A stretch of 64,000 bases of DNA from Lama guanicoe (lineage: Eukaryota), in NCBI GenBank assembly GCA_013239625.1, contig MU055574.1, positions 20,506,115 to 20,570,114 on the forward strand, in the 5' to 3' direction. Positions 21,825-64,000 of the stretch are shown here, one piece after another. The notes beneath the pieces are model-generated. The model had not been told where the DNA came from. It saw only the letters and a program-made list of their open reading frames with translations, and did not search any database. The position numbers and the translations under genes are program-made. The stretch's first letter is position 1. The number at the start of each line of letters is the position of its first letter.

Positions 21825-21943
21825 TTTTTTGAGGGGGCGAGTAATTTGATTTATTTATTTATTTTTAATGGAGGTACTGAGGACTGAACCCAGGACCTCA
21901 CACATGCTAGACATGCGCTCTACCACTGAGCTACACCCTCCTC
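21825..21943 (-). mobile_element. Camelid tRNA-derived SINE (Vic-1-like)
   Basis: Same A/B-box head; flanked by ttagtctgc/ttagtctac target-site duplication. Confidence 0.85.
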
Positions 21944-27634: not shown

Positions 27635-27737
27635 TTTTTCTTATTCTTTTTTTTGTTTTTAATGGAGGTACTGGATATTGAACCCAGGACCGCATGCATG
27701 CCAAGCATGCACTCTACCAATGAGCTATACCCTCCCT
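27635..27737 (-). mobile_element. Camelid tRNA-derived SINE (Vic-1-like)
   Basis: aatggaggtactggatattgaacccaggacc...tctaccaatgagctataccctccc. Confidence 0.85.
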
Positions 27738-36815: not shown

Positions 36816-37620
36816 GTGTGTGTTTGAATTCCTGCTTTGCTGCAACTCAGTGGCTTTGGGTAAGTTACCTAACATCTCTGTGCCTGTTTCTCATCTATAG
36901 CAAAGCCCCCAGATTCATGCTTGTTAAGCAGTAGTACAGTGTCTCGTATGGAGTAAGTATTTTTAAAAAGATGAGCTGTTACCAATGTAACTATTCTGGA
37001 TAATAATATTATTCTACATAAGGTAAACTTTTTGAGTCCATCTCTTTTCAGATTTACCCTCTTGCTTTCACTGTGCCTAGCTCAAAGCCATTCACACAGC
37101 AGAGGTTTAACAAAATATTTGAATAGAGGGATTAATAAAGCTTTGCTGAGTGGCACTCACTTGACAGTTACACTTTTTACCTCCTTTATATTTCAAGTCC
37201 CTACATTTGTGCCGCCTTCCTTATTGTGGGAAGCACATGCTTGGGAAATAACATTGCCACAGAAGGCTGTGAGAGGCTCTGCTGGGGAATAGTTGGAAAA
37301 CTCCGCGCAGCGCCTCCGCAGGGCAAGAAAAGTAGGTTCCCCAAGCAGCACGATTGTGCGTTCACGGTGGCATTCACAGCTTGGCACTTAAGTCTAAACC
37401 TTCTTTTTCCCCGCCCCCCGTATATCGGCCGAAAGTGGGAAACGGTGACTCCAAGTTGGGAAGCACCCACATCGCGACCCAGAGTGAGCGCTGGGAGAAA
37501 CGGAGGCGGGGGCCGGGTCCCCGCGGTGACGGCCGCCGGGACACAGGCCCTCAAGCCGCACCTGCGCCCGCGCGCCCGCCGCGCCCGCCGCGCGCGGCTT
37601 CCTGCCCCGCGCGAGCGGCG

Positions 37621-37728
37621 CTCACGTGACCAGGGCTGGGCGGAGCCGGGCGGGCGGGGATCACCTGAACAAGGGAGTCATGTGAGCGGGGCGGGGGAGG
37701 GGGCGGTGCCGGGCAGTAGTCACGTGAC
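37621..37728. promoter_or_regulatory. Four E-boxes with interspersed GC boxes (USF/MiT-TFE sites, including a perfect CLEAR element)
   Basis: CTCACGTGAC 37621-37630, TCACCTGA 37661-37668, GTCATGTGAG 37677-37686, GTCACGTGAC 37719-37728; GGGCGG boxes between E1/E2 and E3/E4. Confidence 0.85.
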
Positions 37729-37743
37729 CGGTTCCGGGGCCGC

Positions 37744-37912
37744 CGAGCCCAGACGAGCCGCGCGCCCCTTCGGCTCCAGCTCCGCTCCCGCTCCTCTCGC
37801 GCTCGTGTCTTCCTCCGTCTCCGCCCTGGCGGCTCAACCATGTCCCGGACGCGGCCCCCGGCAGCCGCGCGCCGCTAGCCCCGCGCCCGCCGCGCAGCCC
37901 GGCCCCGACGCG
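37744..37912 (+). other. IGF2R: IGF2R 5' UTR (approximate start)
   Basis: GC-rich sequence beginning CGAGCCCAG just after the last E-box; resembles the human IGF2R mRNA 5' end as recalled. Exact TSS cannot be determined from sequence. Confidence 0.6.
37840..37878 (+). other. Upstream ORF in IGF2R 5' UTR ([12 protein letters not shown])
   Basis: caACCATGt at 37840 (A at -3); 12 codons; TAG at 37876-37878; out of frame with and ending 34 nt before the main ATG. Confidence 0.6.
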
Positions 37913-38061
37913 ATGGGGGCCGCCGCCGGCCGGAGCGCCCACCTGGGGTCGGCACTCGCCGGCCGCCCGCGGGGCTCCCTGCTCCTGCTGCAGCTGCTGC
38001 TTCTGGTCTGGGCCGCCGGGGCCGCGGGGACCCAGGGCGCCGAGTTTCCAGAGCTGTGCAG
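37913..38061 (+). CDS. IGF2R: IGF2R exon 1 coding part (signal peptide and start of domain 1)
   Basis: ATG 37913 in strong context (gcgATGg) encodes [49 protein letters not shown], matching the IGF2R/CI-MPR N-terminus. 149 nt, ending in phase 2 at donor AG|GTGGGT (GT 38062-38063). Confidence 0.97.
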
Positions 38062-41000
38062 GTGGGTGGCTCGCCAGGACGCAGTCTTCGCTCCCGGTGC
38101 CCTGGAGCGCGGCAGGCGGGGTAGGGGGCCGGGGGCCCTGGGAGGAGGGGCGGGGGTCTCCGAGTCGCCACTGGTCCGCCCTCCCCCGAGGGAAAGTTGC
38201 CCGCGTAGTGGCGAAGGGTGAGAGATTGGGGGTCGTGCGCGCTGGTCGGGGGCGCGGGGGACCGGGCGTCCTGGCACTGGCCGGGGTCCGCCGCCGGGCC
38301 ACTTGTGGCTGTCAACTAAGTCCAGGGCGGCTTTGTGTGCGAGCGGCCGGCCGCCGCGACCCGCCCGGTGACATACTGCGGGCAGCCTCACGCCCAGCGC
38401 CTGCCCTCTCTCAGCGGTGCGCCTGCGAAAGTTGGAGGACGCAGGAACTACAGCTTTGCTTTGTTCCCACTCCACGTTTTCCTCAAAGTTCCAGCAGCGG
38501 GGCTTTGGAAGGGCCCCTTAGTGTGGAAAGACTCATCCTCACGGATGACCATGGAGTTGGGGGGTTTGGGTTTCATTTGCTGATTGATTTCCTCCATGTG
38601 GGTTTTCCATTTTCACTTTGAAGTAGCTTTTTTGCAGAAGGTGACTTTTTCTTTTTCTTTTTGGATGGGGGGAGTGGAGGGAGGTCATCCAGTATTGGTT
38701 TTCAATTCTTCACCCTTCACTTCTCCAAGCCTAACTTCCTGTCTGGTTGCTCACATGATGTCATTGTCTCCGGGTGGACTGTTCTAGTGGAGTCTTGCTC
38801 TGGGAACCATGATTGTATCATCACTCGTCCCAGTAAGGGCTGTGAGGGTCCTGCCGTCGCTGGAAGTCCCCGGGTTGGGGAATTACCAATTCTGAGAATT
38901 TTCTGACCAACCTTCTCTGGACTGTTCGGGATGATGGAAAATCCAGCTTGTATTTATTTTTAAAATTTCGGTTAAAAAAAAAGATGAAAAGTTCTGAAAG
39001 ACTAGTGAACAGTCAGCAGTAACCCCTGGTGCTAGCAAGTTACTTCTCAGGATGAAGTTTAGCGCAGTCTGAGCTGAATTTTGAGTTTGTGTTGGGGTTT
39101 TTGGGTTCTTACTCTTTCCTTGCATCAGAGATGGGCATATTAGCACTCCTGAGTTCAGACCTTGCAGAAATTGTTATTCTGAGGAGAGGGAGGCTGAACT
39201 CACAATGGAACGGAAAAGGCCCATATTCTTCCTTTTCCCTTTCTTGGAAAGGGGTAGGAGGGCAGGATACTGCTCATTAGTTTATAGGCCAGTTAGCTGC
39301 CGTGAGATACATAGTTACTTACATAAGCCCCCTGTTAAGAGAAAGAAGGGCCGCAACTAACACAAGGTCAGACTGCAAGTGACCTTTAATGGAGGAACTC
39401 TTGGAATAATGGCCGCTGTGACCAAACGCATCTGTGAGAAATTCACTCAGCTGGGCCAGTGGTGTTGAAGTCTTGGTGGTGTTAGCAAATTGGCATTCAT
39501 TTCTTAATAGTTAAGGTTAAAGTTGGTCTCAAGGCCAGACCCTTTCTCTGTGGCTGCTCGAGGAGGCCCTCAGTTTTGTGTTAGGGGTTGTCATCACAGC
39601 GCCTGGAACTTGGTTCATGAACTTCATCTCAAGGTTGAATGCGGCCTCTTGGTCCAGTAGGAAATGGCCGTTGTGTGTATAAGCACGTCCTCCTCATGGT
39701 CACGTGCGGGCATAACTTAGCAAATGCTAGACAGTCTTCCGAGGGGGATATGCATTTAGTGTGTGCCCTCTGTGGTCTTAGGACAGTGTTAGACTTGGTG
39801 TGTGTTCTTTCTGCCAGCTTTCCTCAGAACTGCAGTCCCCAGCCAGTTCACAGCTGGGCCTGTGCACATTTCTTTCCCATTATTGCTCTGTGGTTTCGCA
39901 CTGAGACTTCTCCAGAGCCACTTTTAATCTCTCTTTTAAACCCACTACCTGCAAAGTGAAATTCTTTGTTACTGTTTCAAGTGGATACCTTGCCTTAAGT
40001 TCTTAAGACCTTTTTTTTTTTTCTGGGGGCGGGGGTGTTAAAAAATCTGTGTACTTAAATGAGATAACACTGGTTAAAAGTTCCTTAACTCTAGCATGTA
40101 TTTGAATGGGATTGCGAGCTGATCATTTTTTAAAATCCAGTATGAAAAATTGTGCCAAGCAGCACCAAAACAGGATATGTTAAACTGCCTTCTCACTGTC
40201 TCCCTGGCGTCCATTTGTAAGTAACTCCCCCAGGTCTCCCTGGGAGTACGACAGGTCGACTTCTGCTGTGACTGTGCAGCTTGCCTAGATGGCAGTCCCC
40301 AGTAGACACAAGGTCACATTCTGATTGTTTATAAATTGGTTGCTCATAACTAGGAACACATTTTTCCATTGAAGACCCTCTTGTTCATTGTGGCTTGGTG
40401 CCTGGGACAGTTTCCAGACACCCATCACCTCAGCCGTGGGACTGGACTGCCCAGACACCATACAGCTTCAGCCAGAGGGCCCTGGGAGCACATTCTCATG
40501 GTCACTGGACGGGGGAGAGGATTTCCAGGGAAACAACCTCTCCTCCCCGAGCCCAGCTCTCTAGAACCCGGGAGTGCTCCTTTCTCCTGCAGCCCCTTAG
40601 GACCAGCAGGAGGGAGGTCCAGGCCTGCTTCCGGGGAGCTGGCAGGGCCTCTGTGAGCCCTCGGTGGAGGCAAAGCTTCGGGGTGAGCTGCGGCTCTGAC
40701 CACTCCGGGGGTAGGGGTGGTGGGCAGAGGTGCCGTCCTTGGTGCAGTTAGTTATTGAGGGGGATGGAGGAAACGGCCGGGCAAATAGTTCAGCAGCAGT
40801 TTAACACATTTGTGCCCACGGAAGAGCAGGTCTCTGCGAGTGGAGCGCTGAAAAGCAAGGACAAAGGCAAGTTTCCCAGAGTGCATGTGGCTCTCCCAGC
40901 ACTTTAGGTAAGTTGCTACTTGTTCTTTGGAGAGCCTCAGTCGTGTGTTTCTGAAGCTTCACGAGGATCGCTGCCCCTGTGCTGCGGAAGAAGTTGGTGA

Positions 41001-46961: not shown

Positions 46962-47049
46962 TTTTTTTTTAATGGAGCTACTGGGGATGGAACCCAGGAC
47001 CTCATTCATGCTGAGTATGCGCCCTACCACTGAGCCATTCCCAGTCCCT
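46962..47049 (-). mobile_element. Camelid tRNA-derived SINE (Vic-1-like)
   Basis: ttttaatggagctactggggatggaacccaggacctc...ctaccactgagcc. Confidence 0.75.
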
Positions 47050-49563: not shown

Positions 49564-52500
49564 TTTTTTTTTTTTTTTTCAGGCCCCATATCTTTGTCCA
49601 CAGCTTTGTGGGTTTGCTAGCATAGGAAGTGAAGTACTTCCTATATAAGCTTTTGGCTGTGTGGTGTCAGACTTCTGTGTCCCCGGCCTTCGGATCCGGG
49701 TGCAGATGTATCACGCCAGATCAGATTTTCCTCTTTTAGTGTCAGCAGCAGAAAGTTACTGACGGCAGCGGTTCCATTAGGCTCTTGACATCTCTGCTGC
49801 AAATGTCCATCTTGGAAACCCTGCCCCTCTCCGTGACCTCCTTTCTCCCTGTCACTTCCCACCCCCACCCTCATTTTCCTATTTTAGGAGATTGTTCTAG
49901 ATTTTTGTAGGTGCGTGGTCTGGAGGTATGAGCTGAGAAGCTATCTGATAGTGATAAGGGGCATTAGTGAGGCAAGTGTTTCCTGAATATTCCGTTCGAG
50001 GACTTGGATGCAGGCCCAGAGCAGAGAAGTCTCTTCTGGTGTTCAGGTCAGAAAGACATTGCATTCCCCTCATCCCCAGAGTTTTGAGTTCACTGCTTTC
50101 TCTGGATTCAGAAAAGCGCCCCTCTAGCCAGTGACCACGTTGTGTGAACTTAGCTCTTATATCACCAACTCGGGTCTTTTTTTTCCCTCCCAAAGGAAAT
50201 CAAATTCTAGTTTCACACATGCTTATTAATTTTTATTACTGATTCCATCATGCCTCTATCCTGCTTTGTATACCGATGATTGCAGGCCAGTAATAAAGTG
50301 TTTAACAGCCATGTGACCATGACCATAACCCGAAGACTTGGAGGGAGTGAGGGAACTAAGGTATATTTCAAAAGAGTATGGCTGTGTGGCAATATGTGCG
50401 GAGTTCATGGAGCTGTTTTGTGTGGGAGGGAAGGAACTCAGTTTTCTAAGTTTTTTTTTCCTTTAAGCACTCGAGCATACCATGCATTTTATAATTGAAC
50501 TTTCTATACTTCATTTTAGATGTTAGCTGCTTGAAAAATTTGAGAGAACCTCAAATTATATTTTGCAAGCCATCGCCATTTGGCAGGCATGCAGTGGTGA
50601 ATAGTCTATGAAGACTCGAGAGGTGTCACAGTCAGACGCCTGTGTCAGAGGGTTGAGAAGTACTGTCCAGTTTAGCCCTCTGGCTTTTTGTTTTGACTTC
50701 TCTCTTTCTCTTGGATGGACGTTTGTTCCCGTTTCAGTGGCGATGGCTCTGCGTTTCTCTTTGTGAAGCCCTCCGAACTCTAGGCAGCCGGTTGACCAGT
50801 TGGATTTGCTCTTTCCTGGCTGCCCCCAGTCTGGTTCAGTTTTGACTGGGATGAGCTCTCGGTGTGGCATTTGCCAGAGCAGTGTTGGCAAAGCAGAAGC
50901 GCCTTCCTGTCCCTGGGCTGGTTGGCAGTATGCTGCTTGTGGCCTTCCTGCTGATTGGTAATCTGCCACCACCGTTCAGGATATTATGAAATGTAAACCA
51001 CATGCGGTTAAAATGGAACCTCTGTGCCACGGAACAGACGCAGACTGACAGCCGTCGTCCACTGTCATTTCAGCAGAAAACAGTGGGATTACGGTCAGGG
51101 GCAGAGGGTCTTAAACTTTTATGAACTACGGGAACCCCAGCCTGTGTGCTGAGCTTACATGGTGCACTAGTGAATTGTCCGTGTCCAGGGCGTATTTCAG
51201 TCACATAATTCACTTTAAAAATCAGAGATCACTTAAAGCCATTTGCCATGTGCGCGCCTTCTGTCCTCTCCCCGTCCCCTGCTGGCTTTGATGGTCTGAT
51301 TGCAGGGTGCTTCCGAGTTCCTCGTGACGCTCACTGTTGAACTCCTGGTTGACGTTTTTTGGAGGAGGCTTCCTGCTGAGCTAAGCAGTCATTTTAAGGG
51401 AGGGCATGAATCTGAGGTTAGGAACACAGAATAGGTGTGTTTCCTTCTTAGTGGAATCCTTAACCAGCCTGGATACAAAAGTGAGGTGAGTGCAGCCAGT
51501 GGGAAGGAGGGGGCCGAAGGAATTGATACTCTTTCCATGGAAACCTGTTGCGTGAGGGAAGAGAGCTTGCAGAAAGAAGGCAGTGCCTTTGGTGTTAGGC
51601 AATTCTGACTGTGCAAAAGAGAAAGCAGAACTGGACGGGAGTAAATAGCAGCAGAAGTTTATTTTTAAATTTAAAAAAATATTTTTTGTTTTTTGAGGTT
51701 TAAAACTTGGGGAGGAACTTGAGCTCCGAGAAGTGTATGATCTGTGATCAGCGTGACATGACGGAGCCTGGATCTTCCCAGAGGTCACGGCTTTTCCTCG
51801 GGGCCCTGCTCACAAGCACCCACTCCCTCCAGAATCCTACATGCCATACAGGATCTGTCATTTTAGGGGCATTTATTGTGACAAGAGTTAAACTCTTAAG
51901 TGTCATGGAATGGTTTGCCAGTTTCAGTGTTGTGATTGAAACTAAACATTTTCTGAAGAGTGAAGAAAAACTTTAAAACATTGAAAATAAACGAGGCAGA
52001 TTACCTGGCCCTTGGGGCTCCGCGGAGCCGGCCGTATTCCTGGCCGTGCCATTCCGCAGTTGTGTGATGTCGGACACGGGGGTCCATCTCTCTGAGCCTT
52101 GGAGTCCCTGACTCCCAAGTTGGGGAATCTGAGAGTTGAACTATGGCGTGAGGAGCTTGGGCAGCTGTGCCGAGTCGACGTCTGTGCCTGTGGTGAGCTG
52201 TGCTGTGACGCGTGCTCAGTCCACGGGCCGGCATCCTTCGCAGCCTGCCGGCGAATGGTGACTCTGTCCATATACATGCCTATATGTCATTGTTCTGGGA
52301 GGGAGGATGTTCCCGTCCAGAGTCACTGTGCAGTAGTGGAACCAGACAGCTAAGAAAAATTAGCATTGGGTGGTGGGAAACGCGAAGAGGGTTGCATCAG
52401 AGCTCTGGAACCAGCAGGGACCAGCCGGAGCGATCCGGGGCCCTACCTCGCGTACGTGTGTGTCTAGAACTGTCAGGTTTGCTTTGAAATGAATTTGGAG

Positions 52501-56819: not shown

Positions 56820-56959
56820 TTACACATGGGAAGCTGTTGATACTCAAAATAACAGGCTTTATAAAATCAGCATCTGTGGAAATATGAATATTGCCCAGTG
56901 TGGGTCATCCAGTGCTGTGTGTATGCACGACTTGAAGACAGACAGCTTTCGTTCTGTGG
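56820..56959 (+). CDS. IGF2R: IGF2R exon 2 (140 nt)
   Basis: Polypyrimidine tract and acceptor (ttttcttcctttctag|T). Reading (S)[46 protein letters not shown](G) continues exon 1 in frame (AG+T=Ser). Donor G|GTAAGT at 56960. Missed by the ORF track because it is short. Confidence 0.97.
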
Positions 56960-59900
56960 GTAAGTAAAACTCCCCTTAAATTATTGGGTGTGCAGGATCC
57001 CAATTTTGCAAAAATGACTCTGTATAACAGCCATCTATACAATTATATATGCTTATAATACATCATATACATTTTCTGTTTTATAGTGATTAAAAGTGGT
57101 AAAAAATTTAAATGTCCTGTATGAGATCAGATTCGGTTACTCCCGTCTAGTGGATACTCTGCAGTCAATCATTGTGAAGAATAATGCGCATTTGTGTTTA
57201 TAGATGTGGAAGGGTGGTTCCTATGTGGCTCTGCTTTCTCGTTTTTCTTGAAACTTTGTCTTTACTTTTCTCCCTCCTTCATCCCATTTCCTCTGGTGCC
57301 CTCTTCCTCCTATCTGTCTTCTTTCTCTTGTGTTTGATTCTCAGGCAGTCTGTATTCACATAGGGTCAAAGATGGTCCCTGGTTTTGGGCCTACATTAAA
57401 AATTAAATAGTCCTAAGGACTGCCAATCCCAGAGGAAAAAGCACAAACACTTCTTCCCTGGGGCTCATTTCATTTCCCCAAAGGCCCTTCTTTTGTCAGG
57501 ATCCCTTTCCTTGGGGAGGATGATGGGTCCAAGTGGTTAACAACCATACCAAGTAACATGGAGCAGGAAAATGGTAGATGCCTAAAGGAAGAGCTGTGGT
57601 GGGGGGACATAAAAGCGGCCGGTGTCTGCTGGATTTGGTGGCATGGATGCCTGTGGTGACCTTTGACCAAGGCAGTTTCAGTGGTCAGGTCTGATGGTGA
57701 GGGTCAGTCATGAATGGAGACAGCATGTGACGGGGTGGTTTGGCAGTGAGAAGAGGGTCCTTGGTAGTTTTTTGGAGTTGGGAGCGGCAGCTTACCTTGG
57801 TAGCCCGATCTGTCATTTTGAATGGAAATTCCTAAACATACTTAAAAGGGCTTTTTAGAAAGTAATGTTTAGAGTAAGGTCCATTGAGGTCCAGCTCCTG
57901 TTCAGTTTCCTTGTGTCCAGATAAGGAAACGGTCTAGACTGAAAACACTGGTAAGAGGGATTGGAGGCTCAGGGGAGATCTGAGAAAGCACCAAGCTGTT
58001 CTGAACTCTTGGGCCAAATTTTTATTATTTTATGATATACTTAAAAACTTGCAAATGAGCTCATTAGTTTCTGGGTTGGGGTCTTTTGACAATTCCCGGA
58101 AAGAGGCCCAAGTGGGCCTATTGGCCAGTGTCGCTTAGGTTTTCAGAAAGAGGAAAAGCAGTTTTCCTCTTGGCTTTATACTTGGCTGTGGTATTTTTGG
58201 TTAATAAAAGTATGTCTTCTAGGTGGTGGTACTACAGAATAGTGTAATGTAACATAGATGGATACCAGATGCAGGACACTAGGAGGGTGATTTGTGAGGT
58301 TGGCACAAAATTTGAGAATGACTAAATTAGGTAGGCTTTGAAAGCCAGGCAGGAGAGTTGATATTTTCCGGGGTAGGTAGTGGATCCGTTGTGGATTCTT
58401 TGTGATGGTAATAGGGGAGGTAATCCGATAAAATGTGTTTTTAGAAAGCTAGGCCTGATGGGATAGGAGAGGTTGGTTAAAAGAGAGAGTTAAAAAGATG
58501 AGTTAAGTTATGGGTTGACGATGATATAAAGCAGCCGTTTCTAATCTCATTGTACTCCCAGACACACAGGACATACTTTTCCTAGGGCCTCAGACTCCCA
58601 GAGGGAGAGAATGGTATGCTGGCCGATGTGTGCTTTCAGCGCTAGTGGTCATTGCCCCGTCCTTCAACTCAGGCAAGCACGCTGGCTTGAGTGAGACATT
58701 AACATTAACCCGGAGATCATCTAGACTCAGATCTCATTCTGCTAATGCATGTTACACAATAGAAATAACTAAATTTGTTACTATAAATTTAGTTTTATAA
58801 CTAAGGAATAACTAAAATTGGTGTGTGCTTACATGCCAGGCATTATGTTTTTAAGTAAAATACCTCACTCAGTTTATCTGACTACTTTTGAAGGATGTGA
58901 TTTCATTTCCCTCATTTTATAAATGAAGAAACTGAAGCATTCAATGGACAAGCCGCTCACCAGAGGTTGCCTGGGTATGGATTTGAATGTTGGCAGGCCG
59001 ACTGTAAAGCTGGGGTACTTACTTATTCAGAGTTCTTGTTCTGTGAGTCACAGGGTCACATCAGATTGTTGTAGAGCTAATACGGGGACCATGATGGGTA
59101 ATCTGAACTCCTGGCTCTGAGAGGACAACTGGAAACTAACTTCTTACGAGCTTGCTAGAAAGGAAGGAAAAAATGTGAATTTTGAAAACAGCCACAAAAA
59201 TTGGGAGGTCCCAATAGGTCAGAGAAACAGAAGAGCTAGTATAGCAGTAGATCCAAATATATTTGAGAACTTAATGTATAACCTAAAATTTGGATGTAAT
59301 TAAGCTATTCATCTCTTAGGAAACAGCTTTAAACCTCTCCTTCATACCGTGTAACAGAAATGATGGATTAGTTTAAATTAAAAAGACAATAGAACATTGG
59401 GGAAAACCCTAGAAATATAATCTGGAGGAGGTAGGAATTTCTCTTAATAAAGGATAAGTAAAACAAACAACTCTGGAGAAAAATGGCAAAGTCTGAGAAC
59501 AGGCAATTCACAAAAGAAGAAATCCAGATGGTCAGTTCAACTTCATTCGTCAGCCAGGCATAAATGTAAATCAAAGCAATAATGAAATTAATTTTTCTTC
59601 AATCAAATTGGCAGAAGTTTAAATGGTTGAATCATGGAGTGCTGGCAGGGAGCCTAAAAACGGGCACATTCATATATTGTCATAGGAAGATGGTTGTCTA
59701 TAACCCTTCTGGGAAGATAATTGATTTAAGTTTTGTAATGCCTGCAAGAGCAGTTTCTCTACTTAGAAACAAGTATTAAAACCTCAACTTTGGTTTAAAC
59801 AATATTACATTATTTTTGATTGAAAAAATCCTACATTAGTTCTTCCCTAGGCCAATGATGTTGTTACATATATAAATGTAGCAGAGTTTAGCAATTGTTG

Positions 59901-60919
59901 TTATGGAGTCTGTGAACAACATTTGGTTCCATTTACAACTTCGTTGAATCATCTTTACCAGATTTTAAAATGATTTATGCATTTTATATATTTGATTTTT
60001 TTTTTGTTAAAAGTACTTCAGGTACTTGATCTGACCAAATTAAGTGCTAATAAGAATTCTTATAGATTTAATAGTTTAAAAGAAATATGATAAACCTGAA
60101 ATTCTCTTAGATGGTCTAATAGTGTGTCACAAGTCTAACTCAATTGCTTAGTTAGATAACCTTTGAACTTGAGTTACAACATTAAACATCGCAAGTCTGT
60201 AAAAATGCCAAATCTGTTCACATTCCTCCCAACATTCTAAATACTAAAACCATTAATACCATGATTTTCATTCAAAAGCTATGTATCCACTTCATGAAGG
60301 CTGTTACCAGATATTTGAACCTAGGAGGTAACATACCACTAGGGAAGAGTGTTAAGGTTACTCACCACCAAAGCCTGGGATTCTGACTGGCTTCTTATTG
60401 GTGATGTGGGTGTAGGATCCAGTGAATCTGATTGTAGTTGCTGGTCAAGTGACTTCATTTACACTAAGGAGCCTGGCCCCTGACTGCAGGAGGCACTTAT
60501 ATTATCTGATTCTTGTGTGTGCTTGGGGAAATCTATAGCAGCTATCCAAGTTGATCACTAGATTGAATTTTGCATCTCTGACTATTAAAATGGGAAAATA
60601 TCTTTCACTCTTAAGCCTTATGTCTTTTGTTTTCTTAAAATCATATAATTCTATTGGATATTTAAGATGGTATCTGGGATTATCTGTTAGATTTAAAAAC
60701 TGATTCCTGTGATGTACTTTTGCTAATCTTACCAATAGAAGAGTTAGCACTGTACATAGATTTTTGTACAAAAAAATTTCTTGTAGCATTGTTAACTGTG
60801 GCAAATAAGCTGAAACATACTAACTGTGGGGATAGTTCAATAAATTGCAGTATATTTTATTCTGATTTAGTTAAATCACATCACAACAGATAAATTATAT
60901 TTTAAAACAGCCAACACAA

Positions 60920-61290
60920 TATTCATTTATTTATTTATAACAAATACTTGAATGAATCTGTCACCAAAGCAGACAAAAATCCCTTTTCTCATGGAGCTTT
61001 CATTCTAGCGGAGTGAGAGGGAGGCACAAAAACAGTGGCTGAGTGTGGTGTATTAGACTGTGGTGAATGCTGTAGAAAAGAACAGGAAGGAGAGTCAGGA
61101 GTGCTGGGGTCTCAGGGGTGTGTGTTCGGGAATATTCACTGGGGTTAGTGTCACTGAGAAAGTGACAATTGAGCAAAGACTTGAAGCCAAAGGGAGTGAG
61201 TCGTGTGGTTCTGGGGAACAGCCAGCGCAGGGGAAAAGGGGGTGGAGGAGAGCATCTGAGGGGCGTAGTGGGTGGTAGCAAGAGTGGAAA
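60920..61290 (-). mobile_element. LINE-2 3' fragment abutting the intron-2 CpG island
   Basis: attcatttatttatttataacaaatacttgaatg...cagacaaaaatccct..ctcatggagctttcattctag...tcactgagaaagtgacaattgagcaaagacttgaag. Confidence 0.7.
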
Positions 61291-61667
61291 TCTCTTTTAG
61301 AGTGTTAATATATATGTAAAGAGGATCAGACAAATAAGGCAATAGCTGGAGGGAAAAGCTAGAGAGAGGGGATTCTCTTTTAGTTTGGTGAAACATCACG
61401 TGAACAGTACACGTCGAAGGACACGATACAGTAGAGCAGGGAAAGTGGACAGCGAGGGAGGCCTTGCTGGAGCACATCGGAGACTAGCACGGAGAGGGCT
61501 GTCGGCCTGGCTGACAGGCTCTGAGCGATGTGTTGAGGAGGCCCGGCGGCCGTGTGCTGGGCCCCGCGGCCGCAGGCGGAGTCGTGATCGCCAGGCCTGG
61601 CAGCCTCAGCGAGGTCGAGTTGCGAGCTCGGCTGGGCTCGGCCGTGGACGGCGAGGGTTGCAGGCGA

Positions 61668-63161
61668 GGCCTGGCGGGCCCGGAGCGCGGCCTGGACGGG
61701 CGGGCTCTGGTGAGCGCGGCCTGGCGCGCAGGGTCTGCAGGACCCGGCGCGGCCTGGCCGGTAGCGCGTGGCCTGGTCTGGCGGGTACGGGCGAGCGTGG
61801 CCGGGCGGGCCTGGCGCGCAGGGTCTGGATGACCCGGCGCTGCCGGGGCTGTGGCTGTGGCTGTGGAGCGTGGCCTGGTCTGGCGGGCACGGGCGAGCGT
61901 GGCCTGGCGGGCGCCCTGGCGCTGCGCAGGGTCGGGAGGACCTCGCGGGGCCTGGCCGGTAGAGCGTGGTCTGGCCTGGCGGGTCCGGGCGAGCGTGGCC
62001 TGGTCTGGCGGGCCCGGGCGGGCGCGGCCGGGAGGGCCCGGCCTGGAGAGCGCTGTCTGGAGGGCCCAGCGCGTGGTCTGGCGGACCCGGCGCGGTCTGG
62101 TGGACCCGGCCTGGAGACCGCCGTCGGGCGGACTCGCCACGGCCTGGCGGGCTCGGCAAGTGCGGTTTGGTCTGGCGGGCCCAGGCGAGCGCGGCCTGGT
62201 CTGGCGGGCCCGGCCTGGAGACCTCGGTCTGGCGGGTCTGGCGGGCCCGGCGCGCGCGGCCTGGTCTGCAGGACCCGGCCTGGAGAGCGCGGCCTGGAGG
62301 ACCCGGCGTGGTCTAGTCTGGTGGGGCCTCGCCAATGTGGTCTGGTCTGGTGGGCCCGGACGAGCTCGGCCTGGTCTGGCGGACCCGGCCTGGAGAGCGC
62401 GGTCTGGAGGACCCGGCGCGGTCTGGCGGGCCCTGGTGAGCGTGGCCTGGCGGGCCCGGTGCGCAGGGTCTGAAGGACCCGGCGCGGCCTGGCCTGGAGA
62501 ACGCGGCCTGGTCTGGCGGACCCGGCCTGGAGAGCGCCGTCTGGTGGGCCTGGCGCGCGTGGCCTGGTTTGGAGCACCCGGCCTGGAGACCGTGGTCTGG
62601 AGGACCTGACGCGCGCGGCTTGGCGCGGTCCGGAGGACCCGGCGCGATCTGGCGGGCCCGGCGAGCGCGGACTGGTCTGGCGGGCCCAGCGAGCGCGGCC
62701 TGGTCTGGCGGACCCGGCCTGGAGAGCGTGGTCTGGAGGACCTGGCGCGCGCGGTCTGGCGGGCCTGGCGCGGTCCGGTGGGCCCAGCGCGCGGTCTGGA
62801 GGACCCAGCGCGCGGTCTGGTGGGCCCAGCGCGCGGTCTTGCGGACCCAGCGCGGTCTGGCGGACCCGACCTGGAGAGCGCGGTCTGGAGGACCCGGCGC
62901 GGCCTGGCGGGCCTGGGCGAGCGCGGCCTGGTCTGGCGGGCTCGGCTTGGAGACCGCGGTCTGGCGGGCCTGGCGCGCGCAGCCTGGTCTGGAGGACCCG
63001 GCCTGGAGAGCGCGGCCTGGAGGACCCGGCGCGGTCTGGTCTGGTGGGGCCCCGCCAGTGCGATCTGGTCTGGCGGACCCGGCCTGGAGAGCGTGGTCTG
63101 GCGGGCCCGGCGCGCGGTCTGGAGGACCCGGCGCGGTCTGGCGGGCCCGGCGAGCGCGGCC
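61668..63161. repeat. Modular GC-rich tandem direct repeat array within DMR2
   Basis: Built from GG-initiated modules GGCCT, GGTCT, GGCGC (5 bp) and GGCGGACCC, GGAGGACCC, GGCGGGCCC, GGAGAGCGC, GGCGAGCGC (9 bp). The CCTGGAGA anchor recurs about a dozen times between 62042 and 63083. Confidence 0.92.
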
Positions 63162-63271
63162 CAGCCCATTTGGCGCCGTCCTCGGGAGCTGGCCGTGGGC
63201 CTGGCGTGCTGGCCGCCGCCCCGCAGTCCTCGCCCGGCTCTCGTCCGGGGAGGACGGCCAGGCTGGCCGGT

Positions 63272-63317
63272 TGCCGCGGTTGTCTGCCGCGGTTCACTGC
63301 CGCGGTGCACTGCGGCC
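63272..63317 (+). promoter_or_regulatory. Cluster of ZFP57 recognition hexamers (3x TGCCGC, 13-bp period)
   Basis: TGCCGC at 63272, 63285 and 63298, each followed by GG; degenerate fourth copy TGCGGC at 63311. Confidence 0.75.
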
Positions 63318-64000
63318 TGTCCCCGAGTGCCGGGGTCGGCAGCCGGTCCCGGCCACCAGGTGGAGCGGGCAGAGGAAGAAGGCGAAGTGGACAGGCAGGC
63401 GCGATGCCGATGGGGCCTGACGCTGAGGGATGCCGGTGCCTCGCGCCGCAGCAGCAGAGATCGGCCGGAACCCTCCGGCCCGAGGCCAAGGCCTTCCTCG
63501 TTTGCTTTTCAGGGCAGGCCCAGCAGTTTTGAGGAGCCCCCAGGAGCTCTGGGCACAGGGCCGGATGGGGCTGCCGTGTGGGGGGACAGGAGGCGTGGGG
63601 GAGGGTCTTTTAAGGTGGGGGGAGGGCGCTGCCCGGGAGCGCCCCCTTCTGGCCGCAGCGCGCGCCGTTTCCCGCTGGCCTAGCCCGCCCTCCGTGTCTC
63701 CTGGAGCGCAGCGCTGCAGGGGCTCGCCAAAAGCCCCGCCTTGTCTCCCGGCGCCAGACACGCCCACGGTGGGCGGGGCTATGGGCGCTGTCCACGGGGC
63801 GCTGTCCTTGGTCCCGAAGCTTCGGCGGGGCTTCTGCGCCTATTTGGTCGAAATAAGATTTTCAGACAGACGTGGGGAGTTTCAGGCAGAGAAGGACGAT
63901 TCTGGCAAACCTTTGCCACGTAGACAGACAGAATAAAGAACCGCCATACTGTTAGTTTGGTGCTGTGGGCCTGAGGCCTGTTATCCCCTCTCCATTGTCA

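Follow-up and report, generated by a model that had tools for sequence, protein, structure and literature searches.

A CpG island with a tandem repeat array in intron 2 of guanaco IGF2R as the probable camelid orthologue of the intron-2 DMR/ICR

Maternal methylation of the IGF2R intron-2 CpG island in the surveyed eutherians is reported in PMC6162910, which also summarises the overlap mechanism, in which antisense transcription crosses the IGF2R promoter. In the mouse, the island repeats are required for maternal methylation and the Airn promoter lies outside and upstream of the island; the organisation of the repeats, not their sequence, is conserved among intron-2 DMRs (PMC3291542). The cattle IGF2R ICR has been placed at Chr9:96,220,970-96,223,969, with a published set of four primers and a prediction of two CTCF sites; this DMR undergoes a 27-51% loss of methylation in large-offspring fibroblasts, and ChIP shows CTCF bound to it on both alleles (PMC9079005). 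In equids the intron-2 DMR is gametic (PMC12189881). Imprinting of IGF2R has been described for cattle, sheep, and dog, AIRN is expressed in cattle, and pig AIRN has been seen by visual inspection of RNA data. The analysis also drew on PMC12969872, PMC9419357, PMC6442632, and PMC8479836. The imprinting statements on dog, sheep, human, and cattle are given as the reports quoted here cite them from primary work. The element is textbook and has been reported across eutherians; a camelid would be expected to have conserved it as well. Our literature search, which mostly covered sources outside subscription journals, found no camelid study of the IGF2R imprinting island among the papers listed, judged by title or opening of the abstract, and it is plausible that, as an earlier sequence-only reading of this DNA had suggested, the island is uncharacterised in camelids.

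The window, the whole 64-kb stretch of guanaco DNA that was analysed, contains the first two exons of a gene which, judged by its protein identity, is camelid IGF2R. The splice, poly(A), Sp1, and CTCF motifs used in the analysis were the generally known consensus sequences. The coding part of exon 1, including the signal peptide, lies at 37,913-38,061 (+ strand) and was recognised by its translation, a GT donor, and resemblance to the N-termini of the comparison proteins P0008 and P0009. Exon 2 (56,820-56,959, + strand) has AG/GT ends and matches solved CI-MPR/IGF2R chains (best E-value 1.3e-24, 4 matches among 177,635 sequences); when all nine candidates were compared, its best protein match was Camelus ferus IGF2R, with 46/46 residues identical. 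Exon 3 begins at extended coordinate 66,209, which is 2.2 kb outside the window in the adjoining genome stretch, and exons 1-3 show AG/GT ends throughout and a single open frame. Over the exon cores, 1,058 of 1,069 residues are identical to C. ferus IGF2R, a value that is slightly overstated because the exon ends were trimmed before the comparison. The camelid lineage named in the earlier reading is thereby borne out. In the public C. ferus IGF2R model, both the true exon 1 and exon 4, as seen in the guanaco genome, are missing; it is a partial gene prediction.

Two strong CpG islands are present in the 64-kb window, at 37.3-38.5 kb and 61.4-63.95 kb. The former (37,300-38,500; GC 0.73, CpG o/e 0.93) is the IGF2R promoter island at the DMR1 position and the predicted target of antisense overlap; it holds 12 GC boxes versus 5.4 expected (P 0.003, dinucleotide shuffles). 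The positions of exons 1-3 place the latter in IGF2R intron 2, as had been claimed. This intron measures 9,249 bp, and the island is separated from exon 2 by 4.4 kb and from exon 3 by 2.3 kb. In addition, a weak CpG-rich patch was observed in intron 1 at 51,750-52,500 (o/e 0.64-0.69, GC 0.54-0.58).

The intron-2 island (61,400-63,950, 2.55 kb), recognised by its composition and intron position, has a GC content of 0.75 and 305 CpGs with an o/e of 0.88, as against flanking-intron values of 0.23 and 0.17, and its right end falls inside the window. From left to right it consists of a tandem array, a TGCCGC triplet, and about 650 bp of non-repeat sequence with one full GC box, so the order of parts in the sequence-only reading (array, ZFP57 motifs, edge without repeats) was confirmed. 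ICE islands are described as CpG-poorer than promoter islands (PMC3291542); this trait was not found in the intron-2 island, which has 12.0 CpGs per 100 bp versus 12.3 in the IGF2R promoter island (o/e 0.88 vs 0.93). Similarly, the 8-10-bp CpG periodicity cited as a trait of maternal ICEs is absent from the intron-2 island (74 pairs versus 85.3 ± 6.3 expected). Within 61,620-63,160, CpG spacing peaks instead at 19 bp (z 5.8) and 21 bp (z 5.7), about two helical turns, and is set by the lengths of the array modules.

The island's G-rich strand is the + strand, that is, the IGF2R-sense strand, with a GC skew of +0.17 in the island and +0.20 in the array. The flanking intron is skewed with the same sign (+0.16 and +0.10), and therefore the strand bias of the island may only reflect sense transcription. 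Two-tier G-run motifs number 49 on the + strand and 3 on the - strand of 61,400-63,950. An Rfam scan revealed no structured-RNA family in the intron-2 island. Elsewhere in the window it gave three tRNA-like matches, all on the - strand (27,663-27,734, 21,869-21,940, and 46,973-47,041; 51, 39, and 30 bits, respectively), which are likely the heads of tRNA-derived SINEs.

The tandem array of about 1.5 kb claimed for the island was found at approximately 61,620-63,165 (+ strand, 1.55 kb). It is degenerate, G-rich, and locus-specific. Its units are modules of 14, 19, and 23 bp whose last bases are YCTGG; 70 such modules cover 1,149 of 1,571 bases, and a loose higher-order periodicity of 56-137 bp is superimposed on them. 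A pattern for a 30-base unit had three matches in the genome, all of them inside the intron-2 array. Both the island and the array exceed chance. The direct repeats occupy the part of the island that is distal in the antisense direction, which matches the known organisation of intron-2 DMRs. Divergence within the array is higher in the left third than in the right. Two long - strand reading frames over the array and 12 others were considered as coding and rejected as GC-repeat artefacts, since none of the 14 had a Pfam family.

If the array had been methylated in the germline, CpG decay could have left a trace, and the signal seen is weak. Counted by module, transitions affect CpG positions in 26 of 350 cases and other C/G in 12 of 440 (odds ratio 2.9, P 0.002), and transversions are not significantly in excess. 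One variant recurs often, and when distinct variants are counted there is no excess (13/28 vs 11/31 positions). Noisy self-alignments of the array also gave no excess of CpG transitions (235/2189 at CpG vs 309/3031 at other positions); this count mixed module types and showed excess transversions as well, and the by-module count replaced it.

To the right of the array, three ZFP57-type TGCCGC(G) motifs start at 63,272, 63,285, and 63,298 within a 13-bp tandem repeat of 3.2 copies (63,272-63,313, + strand). The pattern described for ZFP57 is at least two TGCCGC per site (PMC3210328), and the three motifs within 32 bp are candidate ZFP57 sites in this sense, with a count that is not above chance: the island holds 3 TGCCGC versus 4.54 expected (P 0.84, 1,000 dinucleotide shuffles). 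The cluster proposed earlier thus holds as far as the proximity of the three motifs is concerned (three within 40 bp, P 0.004 by dinucleotide shuffles), but not in number, and since each of the trio is a copy of the same 13-bp tandem unit, the clustering amounts to one event. A similar picture emerged for the GC boxes described at the right edge: they are present at 63,685 and 63,771, but two such boxes versus 1.31 expected is no enrichment (P 0.37, dinucleotide shuffles). The single full box, which we take to be Sp1-type, is a motif match at about 63,770-63,779 (+ strand).

Sites resembling what we take to be the CTCF consensus occur three times in the window versus 0.64 expected, all in the intron-2 island. 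One, with 1 mismatch, lies at 63,351-63,366 (+ strand), about 40 bp from the ZFP57 triplet, and another, also with 1 mismatch, at 63,637-63,655 (- strand). Judged by its offset from a cattle primer anchor at 63,647, the latter corresponds to the predicted cattle site Chr9:96223387-96223405. The place that matches the second predicted cattle site showed no match to the presumed CTCF pattern. The two CTCF-like sites at 63,351 and 63,637 lie outside the repeats and do not figure in the sequence-only reading.

The right end of the island aligns with the cattle IGF2R ICR. The best cattle primer matched 19 of 20 aligned columns at 63,597, its top place in 104 kb, and two further primers follow at offsets of 50 and 284 here versus 63 and 314 in cattle, defining a colinear block at 63,597-63,900 (+ strand; anchors 63,597, 63,647, and 63,881). 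The fourth primer reached only a background score. The joint score of three primers, being the best three of four chosen after the single-primer alignments had been seen, was 76, against 48 for the next-best location in 104 kb (mean 33, SD 4). The colinear primers and the CTCF-like site at the matching place argue that the island is almost certainly the camelid orthologue of the IGF2R intron-2 DMR/ICR, and by position, homology, and layout it is to be assigned to that family.

Two other sources of anchors were tried and rejected. The pig "IGF2R intron 2 DMR" primers (PMC3290620) do not anchor the island, as the reverse primer maps to intron 3 and the forward primer gave background only. The former fits IGF2R intron 3 at 23/23 in bisulfite space, about 3.2-3.5 kb past the window end, and the forward primer matches weakly about 300 bp upstream of that site; the intron following exon 3, and not the ICR, may be what the pig study assayed. 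Metagenome contigs were dropped as a source of orthologues because all 10 of 10 loci lacked a blastn match to the region, indicating chance matches. Within its 14-bp repeat the horse DMR has an 11-base motif that also occurs at 63,783-63,807 (+ strand), in two copies 14 bp apart (63,783 and 63,797); a single copy scores at background, and kinship of this pair with the horse DMR is suggestive only.

By analogy with the described systems, the island is very probably a maternally methylated germline DMR, and an AIRN-type antisense RNA is a probable product of it. We lean slightly towards the whole mouse-like chain, in which a methylated switch would permit a paternal antisense RNA and this would lower paternal IGF2R. 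In such a chain, the island would be methylated de novo in the oocyte, aided by the repeats, as this step in the mouse depends on the repeat half of the island, and in the early embryo ZFP57/KAP1 at the TGCCGC triplet would keep the methylated allele protected. On the paternal allele, which is unmethylated in this scheme, antisense transcription would set out close to the right edge or slightly past it, run leftwards through the array and a further 26 kb across the IGF2R promoter, and thereby lower paternal IGF2R, while CTCF at 63.35 and 63.65 kb would shape local contacts as at the cattle ICR.

The sequence-only reading had placed the - strand start near 63.6 kb. Since the mouse promoter lies outside the island (PMC3291542), part of the guanaco promoter may fall at or beyond the right window edge, and 63.75-63.95 kb is an equally likely location; from the mouse analogy and the island edge, the putative transcript start region would be 63,750-63,950 (- strand). 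The same reading spoke of an apparently complete DMR2/AIRN system seen in the sequence, which was overstated, as the GC boxes from which it argues for a promoter are no more frequent than chance predicts. Along the 26-kb path the antisense strand is not depleted of AATAAA (28 versus 21 ± 5 expected), and the first one lies about 3 kb from the island edge. Among 24 sequencing runs listed for 57,000-61,500, seven RNA runs hold 0.18-0.36 of the sequence words and five runs of unknown kind 0.93-0.96; these shares may stem from pre-mRNA, host DNA, or a related camelid, and therefore give no evidence for AIRN. Even in cattle the link between AIRN and IGF2R is loose: their levels show no inverse relation across tissues (PMC6042742), and AIRN is reported as biallelic in fetal muscle (PMC9079005).

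The presence of the island predicts neither AIRN nor imprinted expression, because no Airn has been identified in the horse, the dog is reported without AIRN, and human IGF2R is largely biallelic, adult tissues being without imprinted expression. Cattle and pig, the nearest well-studied relatives, both show AIRN and are closer to camelids than horse or dog, which makes it unlikely that camelids follow the latter two, with a maternal germline DMR and an imprinted IGF2R that depends on CTCF-dependent contacts or other chromatin marks instead of a long AIRN. For such an arrangement speak the gametic DMR and maternal IGF2R of the horse, in which no Airn homologue was identified (PMC12189881), and the monoallelic IGF2R of the dog without AIRN (cited in PMC12309131), together with the CTCF-like site of the guanaco at the cattle-predicted place and a second one in the island, the lack of enrichment of promoter motifs at the right edge, and the proximity of the nearest antisense AATAAA. 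However, the absence of Airn from the horse rests on a citation in PMC12189881 and may reflect low sensitivity, and the binding of CTCF at the cattle ICR is biallelic (PMC9079005). It is improbable that the maternal DMR silences paternal IGF2R independently of AIRN overlap by a CTCF/ZFP57 switch beside a lineage-expanded array; in that case, the G-rich array strand would face IGF2R-sense transcription, and in the oocyte it would be sense transcription, not the antisense RNA, under which the repeat acts.

A relic of the human type, in which the DMR persists with or without a weak antisense RNA and camelid IGF2R is biallelic or polymorphically imprinted, is quite unlikely. Humans retain the DMR and AIRN, yet their adult tissues are without imprinted expression (PMC6162910, PMC12189881), and IGF2R is biallelic in equid brain despite the DMR (PMC12189881); against this stands the imprinted IGF2R of cattle, sheep, and dog. 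Results on pig IGF2R imprinting conflict, one study finding biallelic expression but a 2026 scan finding parental imbalance in three tissues. That the locus is not imprinted at all, being an ordinary intragenic CpG island that arose by minisatellite expansion and is methylated or unmethylated on both alleles, would fit the location of 210 of the 305 island CpGs within the array, the chance-level counts of ZFP57 motifs and right-edge GC boxes, and the weakness of the germline CpG-decay signal. This is highly improbable, as the right end outside the repeats shares homology with the cattle ICR and a loss of the imprint with the right end, the TGCCGC triplet, and an o/e of 0.88 all kept would be unusual.

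The coordinates of the island provide a practical methylation marker for cloning, embryo culture, and hybrid work in camels and alpacas, its value being that the same ICR loses methylation in large-offspring cattle (PMC9079005). The locus also adds a branch to the question of why AIRN shows in cattle and pig and apparently not in horse and dog. Should the AIRN-free reading be true, camelid hybrids would be a natural test of the Airn-independent mechanism suggested for the latter.

Compared with the known systems, the marsupial IGF2R intron-12 DMR/ALID is alike in being an intragenic maternal DMR with an antisense RNA, but it lies in another intron, its RNA is short and does not overlap the promoter, and it is not orthologous (PMC6162910). 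The equid and dog DMRs share the position of the island, and the horse DMR also shares the paired 11-base motif (PMC12189881); unlike mouse and cattle, both are reported without Airn (PMC12189881, PMC12309131). The mouse Igf2r DMR2/Airn ICE is likewise an intron-2 island with a ZFP57 motif, and in both species the non-repeat part comes first, with the repeats distal to the expected antisense start (PMC3291542). The repeats differ, those in the 1,129-bp mouse island deletion being three of 172-180 bp and three of 30-32 bp (PMC3291542), whereas the guanaco array comprises about 70 modules, 14-23 bp each, within 1.55 kb, and seven ZFBS-morph overlaps in mouse (PMC9241299) contrast with 3 motifs in guanaco. 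The 8-10-bp CpG spacing of the mouse ICE is absent from the guanaco island. A mouse Airn fragment forms R-loops when the C-rich strand is the template, which is presumably the native direction of Airn, and in the guanaco the G-rich strand is IGF2R-sense. A further CTCF-like site of the guanaco island, at 63,351, has no counterpart among the two cattle sites predicted in PMC9079005. Cattle have three ZFBS-morph overlaps (PMC9241299) and the guanaco island three TGCCGCG, and the two elements agree in their intron-2 position, three colinear primer sites, a conserved first predicted CTCF site, and a span of about 2.5-3 kb (PMC9079005).
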